Numbered from the whole stretch's first letter, positions 182 through 61,390 are shown. The stretch: DNA of 63,571 bases, filler included, from Stramenopiles sp. TOSAG23-6 (GCA_900128565.1; 29 parts of 29 records of this genome joined end to end with filler, not necessarily neighbours in it), one strand, 5' to 3'. The notes: generated by a model from the letters alone, not told the origin. A program made the numbers and translations.

Positions 182-1945
182 GAAATTGTAAAGATTGAAT
201 TCCAAATAATGATATCAAATTTAATGGAACAAAAAAAACAGCAATTATCAACTATAAATGTACAAAAAAATTTGGCTTGTTTTTCACAATATAAAAATTG
301 TTTTATAGATTGTTCTCAAAAACAAAATGTGAAAATATATCTAAAGCAGGTTTGTCTGGATATATGCCACATCATCCCAAATCATTTGATGACGTCATTA
401 TTTATCAATACGAATAGTATACACCCTAATCATAAAACACAAACGAAAAACAATGAAATAAACCCTAACCCTACAACAGAAAATGGTCAATATCAAAATA
501 ATAAAATACATGAAACATCTTTTCCTAACCCTAACCCTAGCCGTAGTTCTAGTTACGTAGCAAATAAAGAAAAAAATGAAAAAAATGATAAAAATGAAAA
601 ACATGAAAAAAATGAAAAACATGAAAAAAAAGTTAAAATGCAAAGAAGACCATCTGTACTTGGAAATTTGGTAGATGTACATTTTCATTTCAAATTTATC
701 TTTTTTTCGTACGAAATTTCATAGCTAAACACAAAAAAAAAAAAAAAAAAAATTCATACAAAATTGTGTACCTAACCCTAACCAATTTTAAATTTTAAAT
801 TTTAAATTTGATATATTTTTTCAATAAACAGGTTGTCAGTGCACCACCTGTTGCTGTTATAGGCGCAGCTATAGATGCTGGTGTTGGTGTTGTCAACACT
901 GCTAGTGCAGTGTCTGGTAAATTGTGGAATGTAAAGAATATCTATTGATATCATTCTTTTTTTTTTTCAATTTTTTTTTTCAATTTTTTTTTTTTTCAAT
1001 TTTTTTTTTTTAAATTTTTTTTCAAATATAAAATATCACCCTCTTATAGTCCAACTATACCATATATACTATATCTACAATATAAAAATATAAATCTCAC
1101 AAAAAAAGAAATGAAATATTTTTACATACTATATGTCATTTCACAAAAAAATCGTGAAAAACAAAAAACTCCCGAACAAATCTCTGAATATCTCCGAATA
1201 CAAACACGAAAATCAGAAATTAAATTATGTACAGAAAATTTGGAAGAACATTTGGAAGAAAATTTTATTCCATGTGGATCTGAATTTATCGTACGAATTT
1301 TTATACCTGAAGATTTACGATCAAAACATGTATGTTTTTTTTTCTTGTATGATTTTTTTTTTTTTTTTGGTACGAAATTTCGTACCTAAACAAAAAAACA
1401 AAAAACAAAAAAATATTTTTTTTTCTTATGTATTTTGTTCATTTTTTGTTGTATGATTTTTTTTTTTTCCATAGAAAATTTCGTACCTAATGAATTTCTT
1501 TTTTTTAAATTATTTAAACAATGTAGGATTGGATTGGGTTATTTTCAAGTGAAACACGAAATAATGAAGAATTTCATTCTTATCGCAAAATGAGTTCAAA
1601 AAAACAAAAATTAACATCATTTGTCTGGTATAAAAAACATGCACCCAATTTTGCTGGTGTTTGGCAATTACGGTATTTTCATGTATGTGTTGATTATGAA
1701 TTTTTGAATTTTTTTTTTTTGAATTTTTTTTTCATACGAAATGTTGTACCTAACAAAAATTTTAATTTTTTTATACATATTTTTCAATGATACAGGGTAA
1801 AGATACCAACACACCACCACTAGCTGTTACAAACCTGCTTGTACAATTTGAAAGACGTAGATCCAACCCAAAGACTATAAAAGATAATCAAAGTCGATTT
1901 GGTATGAGAAAAGTTGTAGCAAAACTTACTAAGAATTTGTTATAG
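182..1945 (+). CDS. Multi-exon gene fragment with a C-terminal SKICH-like domain
   Basis: Exons 182-676, 832-930, 1135-1329, 1527-1682 and 1796-1945 join in frame. The spliced product contains RSKH|DWIGLF...APNFAGVWQLRYFH|GKD, resembling SKICH. TAG at 1943-1945. Confidence 0.55.
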
Positions 1946-2109
1946 ACGCTACAATAAATTTATTTTTCTAGTACCTGGACATGAACTTTTTATTTATTTT
2001 TTTTTTTACCAAAAAAAATTCAATTTTTTTTTTTTTTTTTTTTTTTTTCCAAAAAAAAATTTCTACCAAAAAATTTTTTTTTAATTTTTTTTTAAAAATT
2101 TTTTTAAAA

Positions 2110-2209
2110 NNNNNNNNNNNNNNNNNNNNNNNNNNNNNNNNNNNNNNNNNNNNTTAATTAATTAANNNNNNNNNNNNNNNNNNNNNNNNNNNNNNNNNNN
2201 NNNNNNNNN
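2110..2209. other. Artificial contig spacer (N-run, TTAATTAATTAA, N-run); first of about 30 in the window
   Basis: The same six-frame-stop linker flanked by Ns recurs every ~2 kb. Adjacent segments are unrelated contigs. Confidence 0.97.
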
Positions 2210-2266: not shown

Positions 2267-3745
2267 GTGCCTTTTTATGCTGTGCCTCCTGTGTTGCTAT
2301 TATTAAATGCGTTTCCTGTTAGCGCTATTGGAAAATTAGACAGAAAGCTAGTATCATCTGAAAATGCAAGAAAATTACCCAAAATGATTTCGACAATGTC
2401 AGCGAATGAAAATTATGAAAATATTAAGGAAAATAATGAAAATAATGAAAATATTAAGGAAAATAATTATAATAATGATGATGGTGTTTGTGTATCCGAG
2501 GAAGATATTTTAAAGACTCCAATTGAACATCAATTGGCATCAATTTGTACGTTTTCCTATACAATTTCAAATTTATTTTTTTATTTTTCCTAGAAAATTT
2601 CGAATTTCAAATTTATTTTTATTTTTCCTAGAAAATTTCGTACCTAATGATTCTTTTTTCGACATATTATTTTTCACTATACAGGGGAAACATTATTAAG
2701 TTTGGATACGTCCAGTGTTGGAGCATTTGATTCTTTTTTCCTCGTTGGTGGTCATTCTTTACTCGCTGTTCGTTTATGTAGGTTTTTTTTTTTTTTTGAA
2801 TTTTTTTTTAAATTTTTTTTTATAGTTTATTTTGTACCTAACAAAAAACAATTTTTAATTTTTAAATATTTTTTTTTTTGTAGCAGCTAAAATAAAAGCA
2901 GAATTCTTTACTAAAAAAGACCCGGGTAATGAATCTTCTGTATGTTTTATGAAAAATCATTTGAAATTAAGTGACATTGTTCAAAATCCTGAATTGAGAC
3001 AAATGGCAAGTTTAATTGAAGAAAGATTAAAACTTCATAATGTAAATACAAAATCGAATACAAAATCAATACATTCTGAAACATCTAAAAAATTTAATTT
3101 TTCTATTGATATAGAAACTAAATTATCTGATGATATTTATCCTGCAGCAACACGAAAAACGGGATATTCACGAGTTCGTCCATTTCAACAAATTGAATCA
3201 AATAAGGTTCCAAATCGGATATTATTGACTGGAGCTACTGGTTTTCTCGGTGCTTTTCTATTATTAGAATTGTTATCAAATACGACAGCGACAATTTATT
3301 GTATTGTCCGTGCTAAAAATGATGATATTGCTTTCAAAAGAATAATTGATAATTTATCAAAGTATGACATGAATAATGATATTATTCTTTCAAGTATTGA
3401 AAACGATCGAATTATTGGAATCTCTGGTGATTTATCGCGTATGTTTTTGTATCATGAATTTTACTATTTATTCCTTACAAAAAATAGGTTTTTTTATTTG
3501 TGTAGTACAAAATTTCATACCTAACAAAAACAAAAACAAATTTCAATATTTTTTTTTTCCTTTATAGTAAATTTCATACCTAACAAAAACAAAAACAAAT
3601 TTCAATATTTTTTCATGATACATGTCCTTTGGTAGGATTATCCACTCGGGCGTTTCAAGAATTAGCAACAATTATTGATGTCATTATTCACAATGGTGCA
3701 GAAGTGAATTTAATAAAATCATATGAATCACTTAAATCTACAAAT
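2267..3745 (+). CDS. NRPS-like / Lys2-like enzyme fragment (adenylation C-terminus, carrier domain, thioester reductase)
   Basis: PFYAVP...GKLDRKL (end of A domain); LASIW...FFLVGGHSLLAVRL (carrier domain with phosphopantetheine Ser); ILLTGATGFLG, GDLSRPLVGLS and IIHNGAEVN (reductase). Introns 2547-2684, 2778-2883 and 3439-3623. Confidence 0.85.
3439..3623 (+). mobile_element. Introner-like intron, GT...AT, with internal tandem duplication
   Basis: Excising GTATGT...GATACAT gives GDLS-R-PLVGLS. The upstream AG leads to a stop, and the downstream AG deletes the conserved PLVG. Confidence 0.8.
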
Positions 3746-3907
3746 GTATGTTTTATTTTTTTTTTTTAACAAAAAAATCGAATTTTTTTTTCGTACGAAA
3801 TGTTGTACCTAACAATAAAATACATTTTTATAGTAATGAAAATGTCGAAAAAAAAGAAGAAGTCAATCATTTTATTGACGATGGAATTCAAGTTTCAGAT
3901 AATTCAT

Positions 3908-4028
3908 GTACATTTTCATCATTCATTTTGTTTTACGTAATTCGTGTTTTTTTTTTTTAAAAATTTTGTACCTAACAAAATATTTTGAAACATTTTCAAA
4001 AAAAAAAAAATATTTTTACACAATACAT
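3908..4028 (+). mobile_element. Introner-like intron, GT...AT, in a Ser/Asp-rich exon
   Basis: GTACAT...CACAATACAT joins DNS-S-SESSESS in frame. AT is repeated at both junctions. Confidence 0.7.
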
Positions 4029-4473
4029 CTTCTGAATCTTCTGAATCTTCTGAATCATCAAATTCTGATTCTGATTCAGATTCTGATGTTTCAATTTCCT
4101 CAGATTCGAGTGAAACGACATCTGATAGTTCTAGTAGTTCTAGTAGTGAATCATCAGACAATGAATATTTTGCTAATATCGACCTTGAAAAGTTAGTTGA
4201 ATATAAAATTTTACCCCCGGGGAAAAATGTATGTTTTATTTTTTTTTTTTTTTTTCATACGAAATATTGTACCTAACAAATTTAAGTTTTTTTTTTTGAA
4301 ATATTTTTCCAAAATANNNNNNNNNNNNNNNNNNNNNNNNNNNNNNNNNNNNNNNNNNNNTTAATTAATTAANNNNNNNNNNNNNNNNNNNNNNNNNNNN
4401 NNNNNNNNNNNNNNNNTACNAAAAAAAAATCGAACTTGAATTTTTTTTTTGAAAACATTGAAAAAAAACGTAC

Positions 4474-4984
4474 ATGCTATATTCTTTTTTCTTGTGGGTG
4501 TTTCTCGTAAAAATATAATAGATAATATGTATACTACAGCAGCAACACTTTGATATATTGCATTATTAAGTGATACTATTGTTAAAACTAGAGATCTAGA
4601 CCAAACATAATCAGACAGAAATAGACAAAAATTGAGAAGAATTGCAAAAGAGACACGTTGCTTACTAGGACAATATATTGTGTTTGTTGTTGTTCGGGTG
4701 TTTGTTATGTTGTTTGTTGTGTTGTTTGTTGTGTTGTTTGTTATGTTGTTTGTTGATGAATTGAAAATTGGTGCACACTTTGACCACTTTGAAACACACA
4801 AAGAATATAATATACGTATTGGAACAATAGGTAAAAACAGAAAATAACAGTGAATAATCCAAGTTATTGCGTACGGTTTTGGATAAGAAGTTTGTATATT
4901 CTGTACTAATTCACCAAGTGCAGCCCATGAAGACACTACAATCAGTAAACATATACTNCCATGAATAATTGAAGACACTTTCAT
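4474..4984 (-). CDS. EamA/SLC35F-like membrane transporter, 5' exon
   Basis: Multiple hydrophobic helices, YPKPYAITW and YILSIIFLRE. The exon ends at a family donor GTACGT. Confidence 0.65.
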
Positions 4985-5453
4985 TGTTGTATNTTNTTGT
5001 GTGTGATATCTTACAGTGCCTTTGAATATGAATGAATAATGAATGAACAGAGAGAGAGAGAGAGAGAGAGATTATNATTTCTCTCTGATATATTTTGAAA
5101 ACATCAAAAAAACACGGTATTCTTTTTTTTTTNTANTCTCTCTCACTCCACACAAAATAAATTGATAAATTGAAAATTTCAATATATTTTCAATCAGTTG
5201 ACTTGACGACGGATTAGTCAAAAGNAAGAAGAATTTCATGNAAATTAGTAAAAAACTAAGAGATTGATAAGGACACAGAACAATGTCATACAGTCAAATG
5301 ACAAAATAATTCAAAACTTTGAGTCGGAAATAAAAAAAATAAAAAAAAATAAACAAAACAATTTGAAATCTTTGTTGTTCATTCACGTTTTCAAAAAGTA
5401 TTCAAAAAGTATTCTTTTAAAGTATATATCATTTTTATAGTATGCCTGTTTTA

Positions 5454-5903
5454 TCAACCCAATGTATCATCATTATCAAACGCTAATGTACCGACTCCAA
5501 TAGATAAAAGTAACACAATGTTGCCGCCCATCCAGCCCCAGAATTCATAGGCTTCTGTGATCTCATCAGCATGATATAAGACTATTGGCATACCAAAAAG
5601 ACTTGAAAGAACTAATCCAGACATACAAAAACCAAACGCTTGTGTCAGTCTAACATTACACGCAACACACTCATTGTCAACACTGAGTAATAGATAGGGT
5701 AAAGCCATCATTAAATATATAAGAAAACTAAGCATTGGCCACCAATTTTTTGAAAATGCGCAGAGGAGAACCAAAATGCAAAGAGATAAACCAAANCCAA
5801 TTGAAAACACAATTATACCACAATTTTTTCTACGACCCTCTGCCATATTTCCACAACCACACTTATCACGACATCTAGATGCACACGTATCATCGTCATA
5901 CAT
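5454..5903 (-). CDS. VPS55: Vps55/LEPROT family 4-TM protein
   Basis: LVLLCAFSKNWWPML...SSLFGMPIVLYHA pattern; 149 aa, intronless. Confidence 0.75.
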   Translation of the reverse strand: MYDDDTCASRCRDKCGCGNMAEGRRKNCGIIVFSIXFGLSLCILVLLCAFSKNWWPMLSFLIYLMMALPYLLLSVDNECVACNVRLTQAFGFCMSGLVLSSLFGMPIVLYHADEITEAYEFWGWMGGNIVLLLSIGVGTLAFDNDDTLG

Positions 5904-6186
5904 TTTGCTACACCACTATTGGTTTCGTAATTTGATGAGATTTCAAGAAGAAGGGTGTTTGAAAAAAAGGAAAAAAAGAAAGAGTGATTTAGATTGTTGG
6001 AAATTTGGAATTTGGAAACACTTCACGATACACGAAATCATGAAAAAACATTTATTTTTTCATAGTAAATTTCGTACCTAACGTTTTTTCATTTTTCTAC
6101 TTTTTTTGGTGAAACAAAAATATGAGAATTGTAAACGCCATTTTTCAAAAGAATAATAATCGATGCAGATGAACTTTGGAGCATCC

Positions 6187-6260
6187 GCTTGATTAGCTCA
6201 GTCGGCTAGAGCGCACGACTGTTAATCGTGAGGTCATCGGTTCGATTCCGATATTGAGCG
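6187..6260 (+). tRNA. tRNA-Asn (GTT)
   Basis: Acceptor GCTTGAT/ATTGAGC, D-arm TAGCTCAGTCGG, anticodon arm CACGA-CTGTTAA-TCGTG, T-loop GGTTCGATTCC, followed by a T-run (Pol III terminator). Confidence 0.95.
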
Positions 6261-6675
6261 TTTCTTTTTCTTGTTGACGGCGTTAGTTACCCGGTAACAT
6301 GTTGAGTCTTTCGATCCGCTCTTGGTCGAATATATATTTTTTGACATATATTTTTTGACACAAAAATTTTTAACTCAAAAAAAAAACATATTTTACAAAA
6401 CAATAAATAATAATACTCATGAAAGTCACCTATGTGGTACATGATTTTGAGAGTACTATTGTACGCCGAATGCGCATATTGGAAGACATTGTGGATCCTT
6501 CATTAGACTATAGTTTATGTCGNNNNNNNNNNNNNNNNNNNNNNNNNNNNNNNNNNNNNNNNNNNNTTAATTAATTAANNNNNNNNNNNNNNNNNNNNNN
6601 NNNNNNNNNNNNNNNNNNNNNNTTAATTAATATCCCAAATCGGGCGTTTCTTATAATAAAATAAATTTTAGCCTT

Positions 6676-8828: not shown

Positions 8829-10080
8829 TTTTGTCACTGTATTGTTGAGATTGTTAAAATTCCAGCTGAAATTATATCGACTATTATTATCAAGTATTGG
8901 CGATTCCTACAGCAGAATAATTTTAGTGATGTTGATAATGATGATGTGTTAGTATTCTTAACAAAATGTTTCGTGAATGCTTTGAAAGATAACGAAAACA
9001 AAAAAGAAACTTTTATATTTTCATCCACTTTATCATACAATATAGCAAGTATCTTAGAACTTCCTCATCGAATTTCAGATATATTTTTATCAAATGTCCT
9101 ACGACTATGGGACGATGATGAAAAACCTTCCTCATCTGAAGATAATTCTGTATTAAGAAAGGTTTTAAACATTATTGATAGATCAAATATGAAAAGCTGT
9201 AGAAAAAATAAAAGATTTTTTTCAGATAAAGGAACATTCAACCAGTGTATTTTGCAACAGCAATCCAATAAGCAATGGGGAGTACCAAGTTCAATTTTGA
9301 ACGAAATTCCAGCAGCATTATTATCAATTTGTACGGATATATCAACTTTTGTTGGTTGTGTTCATAGCTCTAAATTACTTGGAAATAACAATGAGAAATT
9401 TTTCAACTCTATAGATAATGTAGGTGTTGACATAAATATCGATGATGGAACACATTATATCGTGAATAAATTGCCAGATAAATGTATTCATTTTGTTCGC
9501 TCTGTAAATGAGTGTATAAAAATGCGTGAACAACTGAAATCAATCCTCTCAGAAAATCAGACTAAAGAAGATGAAAAAATATTGCTGTTTGGTGTTGATA
9601 CAGAGTGGGGTGATGAGAGTGGAGGATGTGCTCTTGTTCAACTAGCAACAAGCACTGATGTATGTGATTGACTTCTGTGGTGAAGAAAATGTAGATACAA
9701 TGATGCCATCAGAACATAATGCAAAACAATCCAAAATTCAATTTCTTAAATGGTTCTTTGGCAAAACAAATTTTGTGAAATTTGGTTTTTCTTTCAGGAA
9801 TGATATGACCCAATTGAACTTGATATGCCCTGGAATTAGCTCAATATCAAATTCTATCATAGATATACAATTATTGTGTAATGAATCTGGACACTCTTTA
9901 CCAGGTTTGTCTATGATTACTCAAAAATATCTTGGAAATATGATGGATAAAACAGAACAGTGTAGTGAGTGGTCACGTCGACCTTTGACTCAATCCCAAG
10001 TAAATTATGCATCACTTGACGCCTTGGTTCTATTGAAGTTAGTTACAGTAATGGTTGAAACCGGTATTGTTTTAGAATAA
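8829..10080 (+). CDS. DEDDy 3'-5' exonuclease (Mut-7/EXD3/WRN-like); frameshift near 9660
   Basis: GVDTEW (ExoI), ALVQLAT, FSFRND (ExoII) and SEWSRRPLTQSQVNYASLDA (ExoIII). Confidence 0.8.
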
Positions 10081-11185: not shown

Positions 11186-11416
11186 GCTGAAGCTTTATGG
11201 AATACTTTCTCTCAACTCTTTCTCTCTCACACACACACTCTCTCTCGTATCTCCAAATTCTCCAACTTTGCGTTTGATGTTTGATGTCGTTTGATGTTTG
11301 ATGGTCAAAAAAAAATGTCATTTTCAAAGTGGCCGATTTTGATTGTGTTGCAAAAGACAGGTGCTATATTTCATCCGCACGATTATTGTGTATTTAATCC
11401 CATATTATTTCTACAA

Positions 11417-12460
11417 ATGAGTAACTTTTTCAACATACTAAACTCTGATTGCTTAGGTGTGTTGATGCAATCCTATGATGTTCCAAGTCTTCTGAGTTTC
11501 CGAACAACCTCACGCACTAACAAATCCCACGTAGAGCTTTACTACACTCTAATCAAAATAAAATCGGAGGTAAAAGCGTTTTCTAAAGATGTTTCTTCTT
11601 TCCCAAAGGTTGACAATCTTCGAGCTTGGATGTATAGTTGCTCGGCAAAAAAACACCTGAAGGCTAAGATTCCAACGTTTCCCTTTGAAGCGCGTCCTGT
11701 GAATCAAGGCACATACAGAGTGAAATTTAACCAATACCATGATTATGATGCATTCATTACTAAAGATGATGATACATGGACGAATAAGGTTGATGCATTC
11801 CCAGATGATGATACATGGACGAATAAGGTTTTAGTTGCTGCTGCTGATTTTGGTGCAGCTAGACTTGTAAGCTTCACTATGTATACAGCTTACCGATGTT
11901 ATAATCAGCAATATGGACTCTATTATGTCTCAACCTTTGCATCTGAAAACTCTAAGCTAAAGTTCACACGACTTGCCACGTTCGGGTCCGGTAAATATCT
12001 CGGTGATGTTAGTGTAAATTCAAGTGGTTTAAAACACGTCTATGAACTTCTTCCAAAGACAATACAATCAGTGGTTGCTTCATTTCCAGGTAATGCTGCA
12101 AATCGAAATATATTTTTAGTTTCTACTCTCTGGAAGTCCCTAAATATGTGTACAAAATTACTCTCAATGAAATATATTACTCGTTTATATGATATTCGTT
12201 TGATACCAGATATCAAAGAGTTTCTTAGTATTGCACTTGCGACAAACAATACTAATGGACATATTAAGGAGGAGGTAGACGGTTTAGATGAACAAACTTT
12301 TGCAGGAATTCATTCAACTTTTATCCCTGACCCTCTTGAATACGTTGAAGGACCACGAATAGAAAACTCTGCGGTGAGGTTAAATTTTTTGGATAAAATT
12401 AGATTTATTGCTGAAAAAAAAAACTTTGTCCTATGTAATTCAAAACGTCGTAAATTGTAA
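11417..12460 (+). CDS. Hypothetical intronless protein with a possible F-box-like N-terminus
   Basis: Open frame (ORF track 11291-12460). FFNILNSDCLGVLMQSYDVPSLLSFRTTSR resembles an F-box. Internal duplication of DDDTWTNKV. Confidence 0.5.
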   Translation: MSNFFNILNSDCLGVLMQSYDVPSLLSFRTTSRTNKSHVELYYTLIKIKSEVKAFSKDVSSFPKVDNLRAWMYSCSAKKHLKAKIPTFPFEARPVNQGTYRVKFNQYHDYDAFITKDDDTWTNKVDAFPDDDTWTNKVLVAAADFGAARLVSFTMYTAYRCYNQQYGLYYVSTFASENSKLKFTRLATFGSGKYLGDVSVNSSGLKHVYELLPKTIQSVVASFPGNAANRNIFLVSTLWKSLNMCTKLLSMKYITRLYDIRLIPDIKEFLSIALATNNTNGHIKEEVDGLDEQTFAGIHSTFIPDPLEYVEGPRIENSAVRLNFLDKIRFIAEKKNFVLCNSKRRKL

Positions 12461-13136: not shown

Positions 13137-13291
13137 NNNNNNNNNNNNNNNNNNNNNNNNNNNNNNNNNNNNNNNNNNNNTTAATTAATTAANNNNNNNN
13201 NNNNNNNNNNNNNNNNNNNNNNNNNNNNNNNNNNNNCATACGAAATTTCGTACCTAACGATTTTTTTTTGAAATATTTTTTCACAATACTT

Positions 13292-14224
13292 GTTTTGGAG
13301 GAATTTTGCTTTCTTTGATATCTGCTATAATTTTGTATGGCTTCTCTCTTGCCCCCGAATTGTACGTTGTCCACTTTAATTTCAAATTGATATTTTTTCG
13401 TACAAAATTTCGTACTTGACAATTTTTTTTGAAACGTCTTATCTTTTTGTACGCTTTTGTCCACTTTAATTTCATTTTTTTTGTTTTTTTTACTATGAAA
13501 ATTTTATACCTAACGATTTTTTTCAAATCAAAAAAAAATATTCTTTCACAATCTTTGTGTTCAACCAATAATATCAGAACTGTTGATTATTTTGAACAAA
13601 TGAGGTTGCTCCATTCGAATATGTTTGGAGTTTGTGAACATGGTCATTACATAATACAAATGTATGTTTGATATGAATTTCTAATTTGTTTTTTCCATAC
13701 GAAATTTCGTACCTAACGATTTTTTTACTAAAAAAATATTTTTTCATAAACCATATTTTTTGATTGTTTGCCACGATTGACACTTCTTCAATATGTTTTG
13801 ATTGACATTGCCACGGCAGTGGCAGGTGTTTTTGGTGACTTATTTCAATCAATGCTTAAAAGAGCTGCAGGTGTAAAGGATTCAGGAAAATGTACGTTTT
13901 CATTTTTTTTTTTCATACGAAATTTTGTACCTAAAATGTTTTTTTCATACGATTTCTTTTTTTAAATTTTTTATTATAAGAAACTCAACAAATTTCAAAC
14001 GTAAAACATATTTTTCACAATACTTTAATTCCTGGCCATGGAGGTCTTTTAGATCGTCTTGATTCTCTTTTACCCGCCGCTATTGTATTATATTCATGTA
14101 TGTTTTATTTTTTTTCAATTTTTTTCAAAAAAATTTTTTCAAAAAAATTTGTACCTAACAAATTTTCAAATTTTTTTTTGAAATATTTTTCCAAAATACA
14201 TGTATGATGTATGTAAAAACATAA
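13292..14224 (+). CDS. Phosphatidate cytidylyltransferase (CDP-diacylglycerol synthase), C-terminal exons
   Basis: The spliced product contains [33 protein letters not shown]. Introns 13362-13556, 13662-13754, 13892-14025 and 14098-14201. Confidence 0.9.
13362..13556 (+). mobile_element. Introner-like intron, GT...TT (two partial tandem units)
   Basis: gaa tt|GTACGT...CACAATCTTT|g tgt is in frame. TT is repeated at both junctions. Confidence 0.7.
13892..14025 (+). mobile_element. Introner-like intron, GT...TT, inside the cytidylyltransferase signature
   Basis: Only this excision (or its 2-nt shifted equivalent) gives [11 protein letters not shown]. The upstream AG gives TAA, and the downstream AG removes IPGHG. 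Confidence 0.88.
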
Positions 14225-14377
14225 AAACATACATAAACAATAGTATGAATTCATTTCATACATTACAAAAAAGTGCACAAATAGTTGCGGATGGAGAATT
14301 TGCAAGATCATGTATGTTTTATTTATTATATAAATACAAAAAGTTCGCATAATTTCATTCTTTTTATAATTTATTAT

Positions 14378-15287
14378 TTAAAATGGTACTGCTTGGTACA
14401 ATGTAGCAGCCCCTTTACGACAACGAGGACAAGTATCTGATAAAGAAACATCCTTTAACCAATCTCTTATTTCGAGTAATTCAGATGTATTGTGAAAAAA
14501 AAATTTAGTTAAAAAAATCGTTAGGTACGAAATTTCGTATGAAAACCAAAAAAAAAAATAAATTAGAAATTCATATCAAACGTACATCTTCCGAGACGAA
14601 TAATTTCATCACGTTGATATGATGCAGCCAATATAATACGAGATACAGCCCATTGAGCTGCTAGACGAACTGAAGCGTCCTGATGAAAGCGTACCACGAG
14701 CACTACTTGAAGCATAGCACGTGCCATGTATTTTGGAAAAATATAACAAAAAAAATAATAAAATTTGTTAGGTACAACATTTCGTACGAAACAAAAATCG
14801 ATTTTTTTGTTAAAAAAAAAAATAAAACATACATTCGGGCAGTTTGAGGCCCTCTACGGGAAAGTTCTACAAACGTGCTAACTGCTCGAAGTAAATTGCA
14901 AAGAACAAGGCTATCTGCACCAAGCAAATCGAGACGGGGCATTGTCAACGGTTGATCATGTCTTTTGGAAAAATATTTCACAAAAAAAAAATCGTTAGGT
15001 ACAAAATTTCGTACGAAAAAAAAATCGAATTTGAAAAAAAAAAAAAAACATACATATTTCTGTAACAGTGGAAAAAAAAATGAACCTGCAACATTTGCAA
15101 ATTGATTTGGTTTTGATATTTTTACTTTTCTTCTTCCTGAACCCCACCGTCGTGTCTTTTCATTTTTTTTTGATATTGTTTTTGATATGCTTTCTATTCT
15201 TTGTCTGTCATTCCCAATCGTACCCTCTGATGAAATGTCCACAGTATCTACGCTATCAACAGCACCCTCTGGTAACCAACATTGACC
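14378..15287 (-). CDS. TELO2: Telomere length regulation protein TEL2 homologue, C-terminal exons
   Basis: NQFANVAGSFFFPLLQKY|DQPL...DLLGADSLVL...TAR-M-ARAMLQVVLVVRFHQDASVR...S-ELLEIRDWLKDV resembles the TELO2 C-terminus. Introns 14958-15053, 14726-14832 and 14485-14585. Confidence 0.82.
14726..14832 (-). mobile_element. Introner-like intron, GT...AT
   Basis: cga at|GTATGT...CCAAAATACAT|g gca is in frame. The next two AGs are phase 1 while the donor is phase 2, so using them frameshifts. Confidence 0.88.
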
Positions 15288-15440
15288 ATGTATTTTGGAA
15301 AAATATTTCAAAAAAAAAAAAACTAAAATTTGTTAGGTACNNNNNNNNNNNNNNNNNNNNNNNNNNNNNNNNNNNNNNNNNNNNTTAATTAATTAANNNN
15401 NNNNNNNNNNNNNNNNNNNNNNNNNNNNNNNNNNNNNNNN

Positions 15441-51258: not shown

Positions 51259-52411
51259 AACATTTGAACTAGTGATTCCAGCTTCTCTAATCGCAGAATC
51301 TGCATAATTTTCACTTAATGTTGGTAAGCAATCCTCATTGTATACTTCTATATGAGATGCAATGGCTCGTGCATATATCTTGAAAAAATATTTTTATAAA
51401 TTTTTGTTAGGTACAAAATTTCGTATGAAAAAAAATATTCAAAAAAAAAACTTTTAATTTTGAAAACGTACATCTGCAGCAGTTTCTGTTGCAGATTGAT
51501 ATTCTGCAGTCTTTGCAACTGACATTTGCTTTATCCATGTATTTTGGAAAAATATTTCAAAAAAAATCTAAAAAAATTCGTTAGGTACAAAATTTCGTAT
51601 GAAACCAAAAAAAAAAATTCATACCAAAAAAAAAATAAAACATACATGGACAAGATATAAGATTAGTATCTATAATAGATGTCAATGTTCTAACATCATT
51701 CAATTCAAATAAACTACTAAATAGTTGTATAGTTGCAATTGATATTTCATTTGAAGTTGAATTAACTCTATGAATCAAAATTTCACGAAAATTTTGATGT
51801 GTATTTTGTTGTGTTGTAGACAAAATATCATTCGTACAATTTTGTTTTGTATCTCGAAGTGTATCAAACTCTTTTGTGGTTTTGATATCTACATTTTTAC
51901 TAGAACATTTTGTAGTTTTCGAATTTTCTGATATTGTGCCCATTAAAAGTTCAACTATAATTTCCAGTAATGGAGATAATTCATTTGAAGCATGTATTTT
52001 GGAAAAATATTTAAAATTAAATTGTTAGGTACAAAATTACGTACGAAAAAAAAATTCGATTTTTTTTTTTCGGTAAAAAAAAAAAATAAAAACATACATT
52101 TTTTTCACTAATAAGTTCGATAGTATTTTGAATATAAGTTGTAGCTGCAGCAGCGGAGCTTTCATTTGAAGATAAAATTGTAGGACTCACAACAGCATGT
52201 AAGAAATATTTCTTGATTAGAAATATTAAATTATCGAATAAATCAGAATTTGATTCACGAACATCAGTTGCATTAGGGTTAGGGTTTAACATTTTATTCT
52301 TTACAAAATAATTGTCATTTCTATTTCCATTCTTAAGTAATGAAAGCACGAGATTACAATACCAAATTCGTTCTTGAAATCTTTGTATTGCAGCATTTGC
52401 ATGATTTTCAT
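51259..52411 (-). CDS. FHIP/FAM160-like (RAI16-like) protein fragment
   Basis: FLHAVVSPTILSSNE...TTYI and FREILIHRV...ISIATIQLFSSLF. In-frame GT...AT introns at 51992-52097, 51537-51645 and 51373-51471. Confidence 0.55.
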
Positions 52412-52824
52412 TTGATCCATATATTTGTTGAAAATATGATTATTTTTACTAAAAAAAAAATATTAGGTATGAAATTGTCTATGAAAAATAAAAAAATAAA
52501 AAAAACATCCATTTTGAAACAAAGAAATGATGAAATTTTGTGTAAAAAAAAAAATTGAAATTCATGATGAAAATGTATCGAATAAAAACTCAAAAAAAAA
52601 AAATGTTTTTTTTTTGTTAGGTACAAAATTTTCAAAAAAAAAAAAAATAAATTCGAAATNNNNNNNNNNNNNNNNNNNNNNNNNNNNNNNNNNNNNNNNN
52701 NNNTTAATTAATTAANNNNNNNNNNNNNNNNNNNNNNNNNNNNNNNNNNNNNNNNNNNNTTAGGTACAAAATTTCGTACGAAAAAAAAAAATCGATTTTT
52801 TTGTTAAAAAAAAAAAAAACATAC

Positions 52825-53337
52825 ATTACCTTTCAAAATCGAACACATTTCTGTAATTTTTTGTTTAGATTTAAGAGTGTATCCTCTACATTCTGGTTTA
52901 ATTGATGTATACAGGCTTTCAGTACCTAGTAATATCATATGATATGGTAAATTATCACAATCATTTGGAATAAAACGAAGTCGACTTCCATTTTTACGAT
53001 TATATTCTTTATTACTTATTTGATGCTGTTGTTTTTTATGAGCAATAAATTGAACCATTTTGTCTCTCATTAATAACTCAGTCATATTTTCATCACATGC
53101 TTCTTCGAATGCTCTTTGTTTTTGTTCAGCTGTTTGAGCTGTTTTAAATCGAACAAATGCAGAATTTTGTATAGTTTGTTGTTGTTTTTTGAGTTTTTGA
53201 TGTTCCTCTTTCGTTGCATCAGTCCAACAACCTACGTCATCACAATACCATGTTACACCGTCTAATGAAGTGTTCATGGCGTGTATTGTATCGTCCAAAA
53301 TAAGGAAATAAAGTATAGGAAGAACGTTTTTGAACAT
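52825..53337 (-). CDS. Hypothetical protein, 5' exon (second copy ends at 55521)
   Basis: ORF with a hydrophobic N-terminus, ending at donor GTATGT. Confidence 0.5.
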
Positions 53338-53830
53338 TAGTGTTATTTGTATTATTTTGTTGTTGTATATGATAATGTATGAGAGGGGGAGGAGTGATTT
53401 TGAAAGTATGGTGTGGAGGAGAAGGGGGAGAGAAAGAAACTCTGTATTTCAAAAAAAAAATGTTTCGGAGGTTTTTTATTCTCAAATTCAAAGCATAAAA
53501 AAGTCCCGATATATACGCGGTGATGACGGTTAATTTTTTCGGCGGTTATATAATTGTTGCTTTTTCTCCATGTGTTTGGCTTGTAAAACGTCGTGTGGTG
53601 CAAAATACTAAGTACTAGCTTGTATTACAACAACTTACTTTATTACTACGGCCTTTGGTCTTTGGTCTTTGGTTGGTCATATTATATCGATCTCCTGAAA
53701 CGACGACAAACGAACAACGAAATTAAACGAAATTAAAATTATTTAGGTACAATATCCCGATATATTTTGTGATTGTCATTTATAACATAATAAACGTAAG
53801 TTCAGTGAAGTTCAGGGAATATTTCCAAAA

Positions 53831-54529
53831 ATGGAGAATGACTACAAAACATTGCCCGATGAGGAAGAAGCGCTACTTTTGAAAGGAGAAGATGAAGCAG
53901 ATGAAGTAGAAGATAAAGAGTCAAAGAAAAAGTGTTTCATGAGTTCTACCTGCCTCATTTCGTTGATAGTTTTGTGTGTCGTTTTATTGACAGTAATCGT
54001 AACATTCATTATAATTCATAAACAGAAGAAAAAACGTAAAGAGCGTATGTTATTGCAAAGAGAACCTTTAATTGCATTGTATGATAGTACAAATGGAGAT
54101 GGTTGGGAAATAAGTGAAGATTGGAAAACAAAAAAAGATATTTGTAAATGGTACGGAGTTACGTGTACTACTAATGGAAGTGTTATTACATTGGATTTGA
54201 AAAACAACAAACTATCTGGTGAAATACCAAAAGAAATTGGTCAACTAACAAATCTCAAAGATTTGTGTTTGATTTACAACAAACTATCTGGTTCAATTCC
54301 AAAAGAAATTGGTCAACTAACAAAGCTAGAATATTTGTACTTGGGTGAGAACGAACTATCTCGTTCAATTCCAACAGAAATTGGTCAACTATCACAACTC
54401 GCCCAATTGTTGTTGCAAAACAACCAACTATCCGGTCGAGTACCAAAGGAAATTGGTCAACTCACAAATCTCGAACAATTGGACTTGTACAACAACAAAC
54501 TATCTGGTCCAATTCCTAGAAAACGGTGA
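53831..54529 (+). CDS. Membrane-anchored leucine-rich-repeat protein, variant A
   Basis: Acidic N-terminus, TM helix, LRRNT (LYDSTNGDGW...CKWYGVTC) and 24-aa LxxLxLxxNxLSGxIPxEIGx repeats. Confidence 0.9.
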   Translation: MENDYKTLPDEEEALLLKGEDEADEVEDKESKKKCFMSSTCLISLIVLCVVLLTVIVTFIIIHKQKKKRKERMLLQREPLIALYDSTNGDGWEISEDWKTKKDICKWYGVTCTTNGSVITLDLKNNKLSGEIPKEIGQLTNLKDLCLIYNKLSGSIPKEIGQLTKLEYLYLGENELSRSIPTEIGQLSQLAQLLLQNNQLSGRVPKEIGQLTNLEQLDLYNNKLSGPIPRKR

Positions 54530-54943
54530 ACAACCACGTTTTTTGGCGACATTAATAAATTTGTTGGAAACATACTTATAGTAACTATATATGATTGCTA
54601 TACAAATATGTTTTTCCCATTACACAAAAACCAAAGCTCTATCATAATATTCTATCAGTATTCCACCATGCAATTCAAATATTCAAAAATAAAAAGACTT
54701 ACAAAAACATAGTTTTATAGTATCATTTATTATTTATCACCAAATATAAATTGTTGTAATAATGGTATTATTTGAAGACGACATTTATTTTGGAAAAATA
54801 TTTCAAAAAAAAAATCTAAAAAAAATTGTTAGGTACAAAATTTNNNNNNNNNNNNNNNNNNNNNNNNNNNNNNNNNNNNNNNNNNNNTTAATTAATTAAN
54901 NNNNNNNNNNNNNNNNNNNNNNNNNNNNNNNNNNNNNNNNNNN

Positions 54944-57026
54944 TTAGGTACAAAATTTCGTACGAAAAAAAAAAATCGATTTTTTTGTTAAAAAAAAAAA
55001 AAACATACATTACCTTTCAAAATCGAACACATTTCTGTAATTTTTTGTTTAGATTTAAGAGTGTATCCTCTACATTCTGGTTTAATTGATGTATACAGGC
55101 TTTCAGTACCTAGTAATATCATATGATATGGTAAATTATCACAATCATTTGGAATAAAACGAAGTCGACTTCCATTTTTACGATTATATTCTTTATTACT
55201 TATTTGATGCTGTTGTTTTTTATGAGCAATAAATTGAACCATTTTGTCTCTCATTAATAACTCAGTCATATTTTCATCACATGCTTCTTCGAATGCTCTT
55301 TGTTTTTGTTCAGCTGTTTGAGCTGTTTTAAATCGAACAAATGCAGAATTTTGTATAGTTTGTTGTTGTTTTTTGAGTTTTTGATGTTCCTCTTTCGTTG
55401 CATCAGTCCAACAACCTACGTCATCACAATACCATGTTACACCGTCTAATGAAGTGTTCATGGCGTGTATTGTATCGTCCAAAATAAGGAAATAAAGTAT
55501 AGGAAGAACGTTTTTGAACATTAGTGTTATTTGTATTATTTTGTTGTTGTATATGATAATGTATGAGAGGGGGAGGAGTGATTTTGAAAGTATGGTGTGG
55601 AGGAGAAGGGGGAGAGAAAGAAACTCTGTATTTCAAAAAAAAAATGTTTCGGAGGTTTTTTATTCTCAAATTCAAAGCATAAAAAAGTCCCGATATATAC
55701 GCGGTGATGACGGTTAATTTTTTCGGCGGTTATATAATTGTTGCTTTTTCTCCATGTGTTTGGCTTGTAAAACGTCGTGTGGTGCAAAATACTAAGTACT
55801 AGCTTGTATTACAACAACTTACTTTATTACTACGGCCTTTGGTCTTTGGTCTTTGGTTGGTCATATTATATCGATCTCCTGAAACGACGACAAACGAACA
55901 ACGAAATTAAACGAAATTAAAATTATTTAGGTACAATATCCCGATATATTTTGTGATTGTCATTTATAACATAATAAACGTAAGTTCAGTGAAGTTCAGG
56001 GAATATTTCCAAAAATGGAGAATGACTACAAAACATTGCCCGATGAGGAAGAAGCGCTACTTTTGAAAGGAGAAGATGAAGCAGATGAAGTAGAAGATAA
56101 AGAGTCAAAGAAAAAGTGTTTCATGAGTTCTACCTGCCTCATTTCGTTGATAGTTTTGTGTGTCGTTTTATTGACAGTAATCGTAACATTCATTATAATT
56201 CATAAACAGAAGAAAAAACGTAAAGAGCGTATGTTATTGCAAAGAGAACCTTTAATTGCATTGTATGATAGTACAAATGGAGATGGTTGGGAAATAAGTG
56301 AAGATTGGAAAACAAAAAAAGATATTTGTAAATGGTACGGAGTTACGTGTACTACTAATGGAAGTGTTATTAAATTGGAATTGAGAAACAACCTATCTGG
56401 TGAAATACCAAAGGAAATTGGTCAACTAACAAATCTCAAAGATTTGTGGTTGGATAACAACAAACTATCTGGTAAAATACCAGAAGAAATTGGTCAACTA
56501 ACAAATCTCGAACTTTTGACCTTGTCTAATAACAAACTAACTGGTCCAATTCCAAAAGAAATTGGTCAACTAACAAGTCTCGAAGCATTGTTCTTGTACG
56601 ATAACAACCTATCTGGTCCAATACCAAAGGAAATTGGTCAACTCACAAATCTCGAACAATTGGACTTGCACAACAACAACCTATCTGGTCCAATTCCTAG
56701 AAAACGGTGAACAACCACTTTTTTTGGCGACATTAATAATTTTGTTGGAAACATACTTATAGTTAGTATATATATGATTGCTATACAAATATGTTTTTCC
56801 CATTACACAAAAACCAAAGCTCTATCATAATATTCTATCAGTATTCCACCATGCAATTCAAATATTCAAAAATAAAAAGACTTACAAAAACATAGTTTTA
56901 TAGTATCATTTATTATTTATCACCAAATATAAATTGTTGTAATAATGGTATTATTTGAAGACGACATTTATTTTGGAAAAATATTTCAAAAAAAAAATCT
57001 AAAAAAAATTGTTAGGTACAAAATTT
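54944..57026. repeat. Second version of contig 52760-54843
   Basis: Offset of 2184; identical up to the first LRR and nearly identical after the stop codon. Confidence 0.93.
56015..56710 (+). CDS. Membrane-anchored leucine-rich-repeat protein, variant B
   Basis: Same architecture and identical N-terminal half as variant A, with divergent LRRs. Confidence 0.9.
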   Translation: MENDYKTLPDEEEALLLKGEDEADEVEDKESKKKCFMSSTCLISLIVLCVVLLTVIVTFIIIHKQKKKRKERMLLQREPLIALYDSTNGDGWEISEDWKTKKDICKWYGVTCTTNGSVIKLELRNNLSGEIPKEIGQLTNLKDLWLDNNKLSGKIPEEIGQLTNLELLTLSNNKLTGPIPKEIGQLTSLEALFLYDNNLSGPIPKEIGQLTNLEQLDLHNNNLSGPIPRKR

Positions 57027-57439: not shown

Positions 57440-58868
57440 TCATACAATTAAGTATTGCAAGATGCCATCGTACCATTGCTTCTGCACACCTTTAACAATA
57501 TTTTTGCCAGTGCGTGTACAAGCACCAGTGTCAATCTTTCTATGGTAAAATTGTTGCATGTTCGTACGAGCCCACTTTGGACCAATATTAGGGGGAGAGC
57601 CAATGCTGACCCTTTCCCCAAAGTCAATTTGGTTTACGTGAAGACATTGCGATATTATACACTCAAGAAAATCAACTTGTTTGACAGAGTCTGTATCTCG
57701 CTGCACGTGCATGTTAGATCCCAGTTTAGTTCTTAATTGTTCTATGCTCATAAACGAAGACAAATGCCATCCAGCATTCGCGATACTCGTGGGCCAAATG
57801 TACGGTCTGTGATTATCACGCATTTCATCAACGCACCATTTTCTATCAAGAAAAAAACCATTACAATCCAATTCTAACTGATGCCGACGCGCCACTTTGG
57901 CTCGTCTCCATTGAGGTCGTCTCTTTTCTCGACATCCAAAGTCATACATGTAGGGTATAGTGTGTAGCTCAACAGGTGTCCTGTAACCTGTACAAGAGCG
58001 AAGCATGTGAATCACGTATTGTGTAAAAATATGTCAAAGTTAAACTTGAAATTAGTTAGGTACAAATCATAGTAAAAGAATAATTTTGAAATTTAAAAGT
58101 GGACAACACGTACACATCTGCTCGTGGAATTTCATCTAAGCCTCCTAAAATAATAAGGTCATCCGGGGCGGCATTTTTTAAACCTTGAAGTTTGGCTGAC
58201 TTTTGATTGTTTGCATTTATTTTGGCTTTCTGTTCCGATAGCTTTTTATAGTGGTTGGCCGACTTTGTGAGCGAGATGTCAGTGTCTACCACTATGTGGA
58301 TGATTTTGTGCAGAAACTTCGCGAACCGCTCCTTGTTTTCGGAAAAGTGGAGCGGTTTTGGCTTTCCCGAAAATGTCACTGGGCTCTCTACGATAATAAA
58401 GTGGTCGACAACAGAATCAAGCTCATGCAGTCGAACATCCAGCATGTCAAGCTCAAAGTTAAGATTGACAAGATCCCAAACCTTGGGATGTTGGAAATTA
58501 TTGGATTGTTTATACCCTGATTCTACTCTTTGCCAGCCATGCGTTTCGCACGACACAATTTTACTGGAATCAGTGGAAGTCTCCGGTATGTGGTGGTCAA
58601 AAATGACTGGCGAATACGTAAACAAAAATAGAAATAATACAATCACAATAATGGCGACGAAACCAAAAGCAAATTGACTATTATTTAGTCTCTTCCGCAT
58701 TCCGGGCCCCTTACACTTCTTCATCCCTCGACGAGTTCGGCTACACGTTGTGCGATAGAGGGGTAGTCGTATGTTCTTGGTGGAAAGGTTTGCCACGGCA
58801 GCAGCTCCCATCTGTTTTGTTTTGGTTATAATTTTTTGTAATGGCCCGGATATTTTCCTTTTAAACAT
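57440..58868 (-). CDS. Glycosyltransferase family 17 (MGAT3-like), one intron
   Basis: ELDMLDVRLHELDSVVDHFIIVESPVTFSGKPKPL, LDEIP and AGWHLSSF; intron 58014-58113. Confidence 0.88.
58014..58113 (-). mobile_element. Introner-like intron, GT...GT
   Basis: gat gt|GTACGT...CACAATACGT|g att gives DEIPRAD-V-IHMLRSC in frame. GT is repeated at both junctions. Confidence 0.85.
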
Positions 58869-59401
58869 GATTCTTGATTTAGAAGAAATTAAAACACGTC
58901 GTAGATTATGATATAATATCTAATAATTGAATCGCTCTATTGTCATGTTATAGAAATCTAAATGATCGAAGGCAACTCTAAAAGATCTTGATGGTTGTTT
59001 TTATTCAAGCATGCAAATTGATTGACACCAAGGTTATAGAATTCTATAACCTTGTTGACACGAAATAAGTAATCTAACGTACCGTACGTTGAATTGTGGC
59101 TGAGAATGATCGAATGATGATTGACTCTCTTCTTCCATCCCCCTTCAATATAACAATTTTGATCTCTCGATCTCTTGATCAGATCATGGAGTTAGGTGAG
59201 CCTCGGAGNNNNNNNNNNNNNNNNNNNNNNNNNNNNNNNNNNNNNNNNNNNNTTAATTAATTAANNNNNNNNNNNNNNNNNNNNNNNNNNNNNNNNNNNN
59301 NNNNNNNNTTTTTTTAAAAAAAAATCGAATTTATTTTTTTATATAATTTTTTACCTAACAAATTCTAGTTTTTTTTTTTGAAATATTTTTCCAAAATACA
59401 T

Positions 59402-61390
59402 ACATCACAAATATCGAGTGCAACGCAGCCCACACAGCCGTGTATTTCATTTTCTCCGATATGTTCATCTAATTTTAAAATTGTCATTGGAAGTTTGAAA
59501 TTTATTGCAAATTTTTCTTCTCGACTGTTTTGTCGGGTTCAGTCGAATTGTCGTACTTCCTATGGTCAACGAACAGATGACGAAATATTATTACAACAAA
59601 TATTGGCTGTATTAACAACCGCGACAAAAATTACTCCATCATTCGAACATCCTGAGTATTCAAGGTATATAGACGCACTGACTGTATCGCTGTTTAATTC
59701 TTTGCAACTTTTTCGGACATATTTCTGCATAGAAAGAATAAATGATTCGAGGAGCAATCGAAAGTCAGATGTAGTCGATTCTGTCACAGCAAAGATAAAA
59801 TATATCAATACACTATTAAGTGATATGTTTCATTTAAGTATAGAGATATTGGATCATATAATTTACCCTCATTGTTGTTTTTATAATTCACCAAATAACT
59901 CTAATGATGAATGTACATTTCAAGAGAAACATTTGAGGTTATTTTACCTGGCGACAACTGATTTATATTGTAAATTACCTTGTAATACAACCAAAACTAT
60001 AAAATATATAGGACAAAATGAGTACAAAGATATTTTTCAACATTCTGACCTGATAGTAACAAAGCACAAAAACTTTTCTGAACAACAAAAAAACTGGTGA
60101 TGCGGATCCTTTCACAGGGAACAAATTTTGTTCCAAGGTCGTTTCTATGGGAATTTTGAATTTATTGGTGACCAATAGTAATCAAATGAAGGAAAACATC
60201 GATGCAAAATTATGTATCTCCTTATTTATACATATCTGTCGCCGTGTTGATATAATTCAATCGAATAAAGATTGTTTAGAATGGAGTAAATATGTACGTT
60301 TTCATTTTTTTTTCGCCTATTTTTTTTCGTAAGAAATTTTGTACCTAATAACAAAAATCTTGTAATATTTTTTCATAATACATGCCAAGGTTTTACCAGG
60401 TGTTTCACTTTTCCAATTACTTGACGTTGTCAAAGATTCTGTGAAAGATAATTACGCTGTTGGTGTATTAAATATTACAATTAGACTCATCGAAATGCTA
60501 CTATTTGATATTCAAAGTAAATTAATATTAGATACTGTTACAAACGTTTTCAACTCTTTTTTTGAAAGTAGGTACGCAGATACTCGGATGAACGAAATTT
60601 CATCAGAAACTTTTGTTAGTTTACTATACATTTGTAGCAAATGTAATGAAAACATTACAGTAAAAGTAAAACAGACATTGAATAGGTGTGCAAAATATTT
60701 TGACCCAATGATAATTCTTAAATTATTGAAGCAAAATGTATCTAAAAGAAGAAAAGACGAAAATGCCTCAGATTTCTGTATAATCTCCTTTCTTGCTCAA
60801 TTATCAGAAGAATTGTGTTCACTGTATTTACGATGTTCGATACATGCGCTGAAAAACATAGAAATTATCCATATTTTATCAAATAATTTTATTACAAAAG
60901 TAATTGTTATATGTAGTCAAAATTCCACATTCGTTTGTAGTGGCCAAAATCTAGCAAATAACCCTAACCCTAACCCAAATCTAGCAAACAATGGAAAAAA
61001 TACTTCTAAAACAGATGAACTCATTAATATGTGCGTAGAGCTTACACAATCTTTATTTTCGGAGGCATTTTCATTAACAAATATCACAAAGAATACACCT
61101 GAGAGTTTTATTATAGATAGCCAAAGTTTGCCAAAATCTATTCAAAATAGAAACCCTAACCCTAATAACTTCAATCATAGAAATGATGTGATACGAGTCG
61201 TAACAGTTTTGTCACAACTTGTTTCAGTTTTACAAAATATTCAAATACAAAACACGAATAATGATTATGCAATATCGAATGTATGCCAAAGTGTATTTAA
61301 TATTTTTCATAAAATAATTGATCCATTTTTGATGTATTTGCAAAATGAATCAATTGAAGAAAATGACACAACTGCTGCAAAAATGGCTAC
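59402..61390 (+). CDS. Hypothetical helical (HEAT-like) protein fragment; homopolymer frameshift near 60090; intron 60294-60383
   Basis: Long ORFs joined by a family intron. Confidence 0.5.

Follow-up and report, generated by a model that had tools for sequence, protein, structure and literature searches.

How does a single kind of intron come to occupy gene after gene, and what defines the end of its copies when most of them finish in AT? This question is raised by a stretch of DNA of 63,571 nucleotides (nt), filler included, from Stramenopiles sp. TOSAG23-6 (GCA_900128565.1), which we refer to as the window. The introns in the window are copies of one introner-like family, GTAYGT...CGTACGAAATTTYGTACCTAAC...ATAC followed by two further bases (NN), and they lie in unrelated genes. 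We found that these last two bases covary with the last two bases of the upstream exon, and that the repeat has a fixed length of 2 nt. Insertion with duplication of a 2-nt target is the origin towards which we lean for this family; it is plausible but unproven.

The window consists of approximately 29 unrelated small contigs rather than one locus, as indicated by its runs of N and linkers and by pieces that shrink in order from 2107 to 2082 bases. The linkers (N44-TTAATTAATTAA-N44) recur every ~2.2 kb, for example at 2110-2209 and 4317-4416, and are not crossed by genes. The GC content is ~0.3, and the host is an AT-rich marine protist. This DNA was found in public seawater metagenome and metatranscriptome runs, and in some small runs.

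A repeated intron family and its two-base repeat

We delimited 44 complete introns, taking the GT of GTAYGT as the donor and the position aligned to the family's ...ATAC plus 2 nt as the 3' end. In a few introns the donor is a variant (GTAGGT, GTTTGT, GTAAAG, GTACAT, GTATAT or GTGCTT). When all ACCTAA sites were lined up, a unit of ~90-130 nt (roughly 100) was found to recur in gene after gene and could be aligned from end to end. Its parts are, in order, the 5' splice site GTAYGT, a T-rich arm, a conserved palindromic core and then a branch-like motif (CGTACGAAATTTYGTAC-CTAAC), a second T-rich arm, and a 3' end that reads ...TTTCCAAAATAC or ...TTTTCACAATAC. The core, GTACCTAA, occurs 64 times in the 59,968 non-N bases of the window, and the contigs carry more than 15 truncated copies in addition to the 44 complete ones. 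Subfamily A, in which an exon end (AT) is followed by GTATGTTTTATTTTTTT...AAATCGAATTTTTTTTTCGTACGAAATTTTGTACCTAACAA, a T-rich part and GAAATATTTTTCCAAAATACAT, has a median pairwise identity of 0.81 and a maximum of 0.93. Subfamily B, laid out as GTACGTTT...TTTTCACAATAC+NN, has a median of 0.59.

Four introns are compound, with two or three core copies each (1330-1526, 3439-3623, 33949-34315 and 41542-41714). In the first of these, two whole units abut as ..CTTAT followed by GTATTT.., the AT being common to both, and the second contains an internal tandem duplication of 59 nt. Minimum-energy folds paired the AUGUAU/AUACAU ends in 15 of 35 copies, and the structures were weak; a small hairpin over CGUACGAAAUUUUGUAC was recurrent directly before CUAAC.

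Every complete copy is in the sense orientation (44/44), as are 12 truncated copies at contig ends that were checked by eye against the flanking open reading frames (ORFs). Removal is thus orientation-dependent, which places it at the RNA level. The sole intergenic piece, at ~6050-6085, is a fragment of the core only and lies ~100 nt upstream of a tRNA-Asn gene. The element motif is found within 130 nt of 30 of the 56 contig ends, and so the repeat evidently breaks the assembly. Over all runs compared, the summed sequencing depth of intron parts was hundreds to thousands of times that of most exon parts (some exon parts were uncovered), a figure that pools every organism in a sample and is only a rough sign of copy number. 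A scan of public collections with the core motif recovered a related copy, GTATGT...CACAATACAT behind an exon end AT and with an AT/AT pair (exon end/intron end), in an unrelated metagenome contig (L001). The same scan gave a match in a Bacteroidales metagenome-assembled genome, which we rejected as a chance match in bacterial coding DNA, and no match in viral contigs.

The boundaries are supported in 35 of the 44 introns by open frames on both sides and by chains of exon lengths; six could not be checked and three do not fit. We also compared, across a junction, the Pfam profile coordinates of the separate exons. The profile continues from 71 through a split codon to 73 in NAD_binding_4 (intron 3439-3623), from 235 through a split codon to 237 in CTP_transf_1 (13892-14025), and from 187-188 through a split codon to 190 in Glyco_transf_17 (58014-58113).

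A CTAA branch-like motif with T tracts is present in 32 of the 35 frame-supported introns, and the distance from CTAAC to the 3' end is 13-91 nt, with a median of 40. In 11 of the 32 there is an unused AG between the motif and the end, and in six of them a TAG lies 13-18 nt past the motif (23051-23164, 23660-23772, 39784-39895, 41288-41410, 48796-48899 and 51537-51645, all on the minus strand). We ruled out the internal TAG as the end of these introns, since the frame chains would then be disrupted. Either the branch point is elsewhere than at CTAAC, or an AG at that distance goes unrecognized as a 3' site.

The last two bases of the intron are the same as the last two of the upstream exon in 32 of the 44 introns. 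In the notation exon end/intron end, the matching pairs are AT/AT (28), TT/TT (2), GT/GT (1) and AG/AG (1). On the plus strand, AT/AT pairs are found at 931-1134 (GTAAAG..ACTATAT, frames consistent on both sides), 3746-3825 (in frame at its AT, whereas use of an AG 8 nt further on would shift the frame and bring in a stop), 3908-4028, 13662-13754 (..AAACCAT), 14098-14201 (the last exon is too short for a frame check), 16370-16460, 41825-41929 (of whose upstream exon the contig has only 4 nt), 50174-50266 and 60294-60383. On the minus strand they are found at 14485-14585, 14726-14832, 14958-15053, 22245-22334, 23051-23164 (..AATGCAT), 23660-23772, 34500-34630, 39784-39895, 40702-40826 (which contains a CCCTAA repeat), 40962-41130 (..GATATAT), 41288-41410 (..AAAAAAT), 42504-42606 (GTACAT..CGAAAT), 42948-43078 (..CACAATAT), 43544-43678 (donor GTTTGT), 51373-51471 (..GATATAT), 51537-51645 and 51992-52097; the long compound intron 33949-34315 is AT/AT by consensus, its frame not being verifiable. 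The pairs that are informative beyond AT are TT/TT at 13362-13556 (+; ..CACAATCTTT) and 35928-36024 (-; ..CACATTATTT), GT/GT at 58014-58113 (-; ..CACAATACGT) and, weakly, AG/AG at 48796-48899 (-), an intron that skips the TAG 13 nt past its CTAA.

Twelve pairs do not match. AT/AG occurs four times on these counts, at 1330-1526 (+; the two tandem units), 1683-1795 (+; ..GATACAG), 2778-2883 (+; GTAGGT..) and 43186-43317 (-; ..AATAAAG by consensus). TT/AT occurs at 22440-22531 (-; in frame, with an inferred and degenerate donor GTGCTT) and 51130-51258 (-), and AC/AT at 33344-33447 (-) and 41542-41714 (-; upstream exon cut by the contig end). The remaining four are TT/AG at 2547-2684 (+), GC/AT at 3439-3623 (+), AT/TT at 13892-14025 (+; ..CACAATACTT) and GT/AG at 33657-33820 (-; GTAGGT..AACAG), where the frame chain is inconsistent either here or at the next upstream intron. 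The odd exon and intron ends are confined to the older subfamily B, and the exon end in subfamily A is uniformly AT. This distribution fits decay by age, and it also fits the absence of any duplication.

We assessed the agreement between exon and intron ends against 200,000 shuffles of intron ends among introns. For all 44 introns, the 32 matches exceeded the shuffle mean of 25.3 (p=3e-4), the four matches other than AT exceeded 0.55 expected (p=3e-4), and the three that are neither AT nor AG exceeded 0.39 expected (p=2e-3). With the 35 frame-supported introns alone, the corresponding values were p=8e-5, 9e-5 and 7e-4. As a control, other 2-nt windows near the 3' end matched in 2-6 of the 42 introns then regarded as not frame-inconsistent, compared to 31 at the position in question. 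Of the four introns that end in TT or GT, three follow an exon with that very dinucleotide at its end. At position -3, there was no covariation (12 agreements and 11.2 expected, p=0.44, in the 31 two-nt-matched introns out of 41), and the repeat is therefore exactly 2 nt long. For the same reason a longer duplication, ATG or CATG, was ruled out, the G at +1 being merely a preference. A mariner-like TA duplication in another register was dropped; the TA pairs stand in inverted positions, not direct ones. C is found at exon position -3 in 18 of 41 introns (44%) and G at position +1 of the next exon in 24 of 41 (59%), on a background of 17-18%, from which we infer an empty site of roughly C-AT-G, a symmetric, palindromic preference.

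An earlier note on this DNA, made from the sequence alone, had described the intron's end as a copy of the exon's end, and each of the introns that it listed carries the dinucleotides that it gave. It named four exceptions (those starting at 3439, 13892, 22440 and 33344), which are indeed mismatches; there are eight more. The covariation that it proposed as a test survives removal of the AT background, although the informative events are few.

Origin of the family

If the family arose by insertion with target duplication, a mobile unit GTA...TAC would have entered, at the DNA level, a 2-nt target XY, mostly the AT of a site that is roughly C-AT-G. A staggered cut would have duplicated the target, giving XY-GTA...TAC-XY. 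The unit would bring its own 5' splice site together with the branch region and T tracts. Splicing begins at the G of GTA and ends 2 nt beyond TAC, as the frames, the Pfam profiles and a joined contig (below) show, a position that would lie after the second copy of the target. The unit and one XY would be removed together and the original reading frame restored. Since AT is the commonest target, GT-AT introns make up about three quarters of the total; rarer targets would produce GT-TT and GT-GT introns, while ordinary GT-AG introns would come from AG targets or from T>G changes made later. Mismatched pairs would then represent older copies altered since insertion at the exon end or the intron end, for example by a T>G making ..ACAG or by an exon-end T>C, which would be synonymous at 41714. 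The insertion at the DNA level, the staggered cut and the later changes are all inferred.

Part of this sequence of events can be compared with reads. Our comparison of reads and contigs from public runs X1, X7 and X8 covered one contig, 13237-15340; parts without cover are uninformative, and the tables are dominated by the repeat. In X1 there is a 351-nt contig (record 4) that matches with 0 differences and joins 15053 to 14956, precisely the product predicted for removal of 14958-15053, and that continues 26 nt into the next intron. For this one intron removal leaves no scar. X1 also contains intron-bearing contigs (records 1 and 3) at similar depth. In the RNA runs X7 and X8, a 172-nt contig fits 14833-14956 and then has 48 further letters, and the ends of other contigs coincide with exon/intron borders, a pattern expected where an assembly graph branches between two forms; we regard these RNA contigs as hints.

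The earlier note had proposed a mobile GTA...TAC unit with a 2-bp duplication and scarless insertion. The repeated unit, the 2-nt length and the 3' boundary 2 nt past ...ATAC hold up, and the absence of a scar was borne out for the single intron at 14958-15053. The transposon itself is less well served, and the following points weigh against an origin by target duplication. Twelve of the 44 introns mismatch, and the GC/AT pair among them would need two changes. The informative pairs are few (two TT/TT, one GT/GT and, weakly, one AG/AG). An inverted repeat, ATGTA..TACAT, would account just as well for 28 of the 32 matches, AT being palindromic. The inverted ends, GTAT..ATAC, measure only 4 nt (6 if the AT is counted) and coincide in part with the 5' splice signal. 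The preferences for C or A at -3 and G at +1 resemble the ordinary exon consensus, MAG before G. There is no copy outside genes or antisense within the window, and a DNA transposon might leave such copies. An X1 contig that is ~93% alike over 13267-13718 carries AT in place of TT at the exon end (13360 T>A) and has the same intron end, ..CTTT, so that one of the two TT/TT pairs is not conserved in a relative; one later substitution in that relative would explain it. The joined contig represents an allele without the intron or else a transcript that is partly spliced, X1 being only guessed to be DNA. None of the contigs compared shows an unambiguous empty site, and among the joints listed for the contig 13237-15340 there is no RNA junction at any mismatch intron.

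Finally, the frame does not fit the assumed end in three introns on the minus strand, and fits 2 nt earlier or 1 nt later: 42701-42815 (fits ..TAC, not ..TACAT), 43186-43317, and 51130-51258 (fits ..CATAC, not ..ACAT). These three may be GT-AC or GT-AA introns, or assembly errors. The latter may be the case, since the assembly breaks frame by 1 nt at least once, within a conserved domain near 9660.

At ~9646-9671 (+) a 3'-5' exonuclease domain is split over two overlapping ORFs, with a 1-nt frame change at ..ACTGATGTATGTG.. that is either an assembly indel or a real frameshift; the assembly does contain frame breaks.

Several of the same observations can be read without any duplication. The terminal AT would then be the intron's own Y-A-T 3' signal, the AT at the exon end a separate preference (M-A-T before G), and the TT/TT and GT/GT pairs coincidences; the family would have spread through RNA, by reverse splicing and then reverse transcription, or by another duplication-free route. 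This account draws on the 12 mismatched pairs, the AT/TT relative of 13362 in X1, and the sense orientation of every copy inside genes. It also draws on the bases themselves: -2, -1 and -3 are kept like a splice signal, while the preceding TAC varies (TAT, TGC, GAC, AAA, ACC), and exon position -3 is C or A in 32 of 44 introns, as in the MAG consensus. We nevertheless consider it unlikely. It leaves to chance the agreement in three of the four TT- or GT-ended introns, where 0.39 were expected (p=2e-3), and it calls for two independent shifts of preference from G to T, at the exon end and at the intron end, which is less economical than one duplicated target.

The covariation statistics would be fitted equally well by microhomology, in which a DNA or complementary DNA (cDNA) copy of an intron was captured at a break, its last two bases pairing with the target, so that variant copies with a terminal TT or GT would settle behind TT or GT. 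Recurrent odd ends could then mark sub-lineages that carry their own end: ..ATACTT recurs at 13892-14025 and in a 5'-truncated copy ending near 13291, and ..ATACGT at 58014-58113 and in a 5'-truncated copy near 2217-2255. Microhomology is usually variable in length, whereas this repeat is fixed at 2 nt with no excess at -3, and the intron at 13892 ends in TT behind an AT exon end. We therefore judge this route improbable.

The duplication could also be an effect of the register. If the introns ran from two bases before GTA to ...TAC, they would be mostly AT-AC and the 3' AT would be exonic. The earlier note had pointed to this ambiguity, and it holds for the 32 matched introns, whose messenger RNA (mRNA) is identical either way; moreover, the ends at 42815, 51258 and 43317 fit a cut 2 nt earlier (after TAC or TAA) or 1 nt later. 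In the shifted register, however, both intron ends vary. The first two bases would be AT (33), TT (5), AC (2), GT (2), GC (1) or AG (1), and at the other end A is found in 37 and C in 31 of 44 introns (at positions -4 and -3 of the unshifted intron). In the unshifted register, GT is present in all 44 by construction and GTA in 42, position -2 is A in 40, position -1 is T in 37 and G in 7, and position -3 is a pyrimidine in 41. Only a cut before the G makes GTAYGT a standard U2-type 5' site. The seven copies with a terminal AG share the aligned 3' position of the others and read as ordinary GT-AG introns only when unshifted.

The mismatch at 3439 separates the two registers, which predict GDLS-R-P and GDLS-C-P, respectively. 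The only homologue found in protein look-ups across the junctions at 3439 and 13892 (P0001, distant; the searches were limited in length, so that absence of others is not implied) reads GDLSRPHLGLS, with R and not C. It lessens the ambiguity at 3439 and favours GT..AT there, as judged from one homologous protein rather than from RNA. Taken with the conserved ends, the U2-type 5' site and the seven AG-ended copies, it favours the GT..NN register, and we find a shifted one very doubtful. With the boundaries so placed, the 3' consensus Y-A-T is YAG with its last base changed, and AT, TT, GT and AG all occur 2 nt past ...ATAC. The 3' site is positional: it lies 2 nt past ...ATAC whichever dinucleotide is there.

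Programmed elimination of DNA between 2-nt repeats, in the manner of ciliates, would account for the X1 contig (guessed to be DNA) that lacks exactly 14958-15053 and keeps the start of the next intron, but we give it hardly any credence, given that X1 has intron-containing contigs at similar depth, that all 44 copies and the 12 truncated ones are in sense, that every copy has GTAYGT and 32 of the 35 frame-supported ones the CTAA motif and T tracts, and that long ORFs stay open under the standard code.

Other features of the window

The genes in the window encode ordinary eukaryotic Pfam domains: NAD_binding_4, a 3'-5' exonuclease, TPR, LCCL, CCHC zinc knuckles, a 5-phosphatase-type fold, Sel1, EamA, RanBP1, HpcH, LRR, glycosyltransferase 17 and a Cfap43 coiled coil. 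A RAI16-like match is weak and under Pfam's cutoff. A look-up in a protein atlas led to RanBP1 clusters alone, which are generically eukaryotic. Three ORFs of 268-391 amino acids, at 11285-12457 (+), 28897-29997 (-) and 27732-28535 (-), have no Pfam match at E<=0.001. An Rfam scan of the window returned two tRNAs only, tRNA-Asn(GTT) genes at 6186-6261 and 39204-39279 (+), and no small nuclear RNA (snRNA). Contigs 4417-6522 and 37435-39527 are near copies of one another, and contigs 52760-54843 and 54944-57026 are ~80% alike by position.

There are 14 telomere-like (CCCTAA)n runs of at least 11 nt in the window, where base composition predicts ~0.008. They include runs on the plus strand at 463-473, 529-539, 45148-45158, 45223-45233, 60962-60972 and 61154-61164, runs on the minus strand at 34790-34800, 43391-43401, 43742-43752 and 52274-52284, and two inside introns at 40805-40815 and 42562-42572. 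In genes, CCCTAA is on the sense strand and the in-frame translation is NPNPN. Their appearance is that of short insertions into coding regions, of a kind distinct from the introns.

Relation to known introns

Two features by which introners are recognized were found in this family: many alike introns in unrelated genes, and one splice site in the element with the other at the duplicated target, the latter seen in the frames, the Pfam continuity and the joined contig. The nearest likeness is to introners that number in the hundreds to thousands in Micromonas pusilla and in Aureococcus (Huff et al. 2016, cited through PMC11282704). Transposon-derived introns with one splice site supplied by a target duplication, of 3 nt in Micromonas, are established there and in other algae (PMC11282704). 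They share with the family described here its alike introns in unrelated genes, a short direct repeat beside short inverted ends, one splice site from the element and the other in the duplicated target, and scarless excision. They differ in that their repeat is 3 nt or more and their splice sites are canonical. Here the repeat is 2 nt and the duplicated copy gives the 3' end, mostly AT and hence GT-AT; the inverted ends are only 4-6 nt, and the transposon origin is putative.

Further parallels come from introners of Amoebophrya, with 3-5-nt direct repeats plus inverted repeats (PMC7789003), and from the tunicate Fritillaria borealis, where AG-AT and AG-AC introns are linked to a TAC motif (PMC11282704). 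Repeated introns, direct repeats over the exon/intron borders and non-GT-AG ends spliced by the host are common to these and to our family. These introns, however, have many border combinations, inverted repeats of 8-20 nt and hairpins, and Amoebophrya is described as without detectable U1 snRNA, whereas the family in the window has a perfect GTAYGT and a CTAAC branch-like motif and deviates from YAG in the last base alone.

Nonconventional introns of euglenids and marine diplonemids also have short direct border repeats and pairable ends, and an origin from miniature inverted-repeat transposable elements (MITEs) has been suggested for them; single-cell diplonemid introns are described by citing papers as Euglena-like and without conserved borders (PMC6221363, PMC12621601). 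In these accounts such introns have no conserved borders or complementarity to U1 and rely on stable pairing of their ends. We ruled out this type, as GTA is found at the 5' end in 42 of 44 introns, A at -2 in 40 of 44, and paired ends in only 15 of 35 folds, which are weak. We also ruled out introns of the U12-type AT-AC class. U12-type introns have a 5' site ATATCCTT or GTATCCTT and a branch site TCCTTAAC 10-20 nt from the 3' end; here the 5' end is GTAYGTTT, and between CTAAC and the 3' end there are 13-91 nt (median 40). Ciliate-type internal eliminated sequences were rejected as a class, all copies being in sense and having splice signals. Fungal introner-like elements are canonical GT-AG introns that are not known to have a flanking duplication. 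They resemble the present family as alike spliceosomal-type introns that multiply in genes in the sense orientation, and are named in PMC11282704.

Introners whose target duplication supplies a splice site are thus known; what is unusual is a 2-nt AT repeat that gives mostly GT-AT introns. Surveys of introners mostly take annotated introns as their starting material and check or discard families whose splice sites are not familiar (PMC12130899), the known sites being GT, GC, GA and AT at the 5' end and AG and AC at the 3' end. A family whose 3' end is made AT by a duplicated 2-nt target would escape such filters. Our literature search found no work linking 'GT-AT' with 'introner', although the supplementary tables of PMC12130899 may list relevant families, and on GT-AT or GU-AU introns it found, among the matches listed and judged by title, scattered single cases.

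Introners are the best documented source of new introns. We suggest, and only tentatively, that in this uncultured protist the ordinary spliceosome may routinely use a non-AG 3' site, set by its place 2 nt past ...ATAC rather than by the dinucleotide there, even in introns with a TAG 13-18 nt past the branch-like motif, with about three quarters of the introns GT-AT, and that a mobile family has re-tuned 3' splice-site recognition genome-wide or exploits a recognition already re-tuned. Among eukaryotic cut-and-paste superfamilies, few are known for duplications of 2 bp. Should the 2-nt duplication prove real, the choice of candidate enzymes becomes narrower, and such a family would show how far 3' splice-site recognition bends to tolerate a mobile element.

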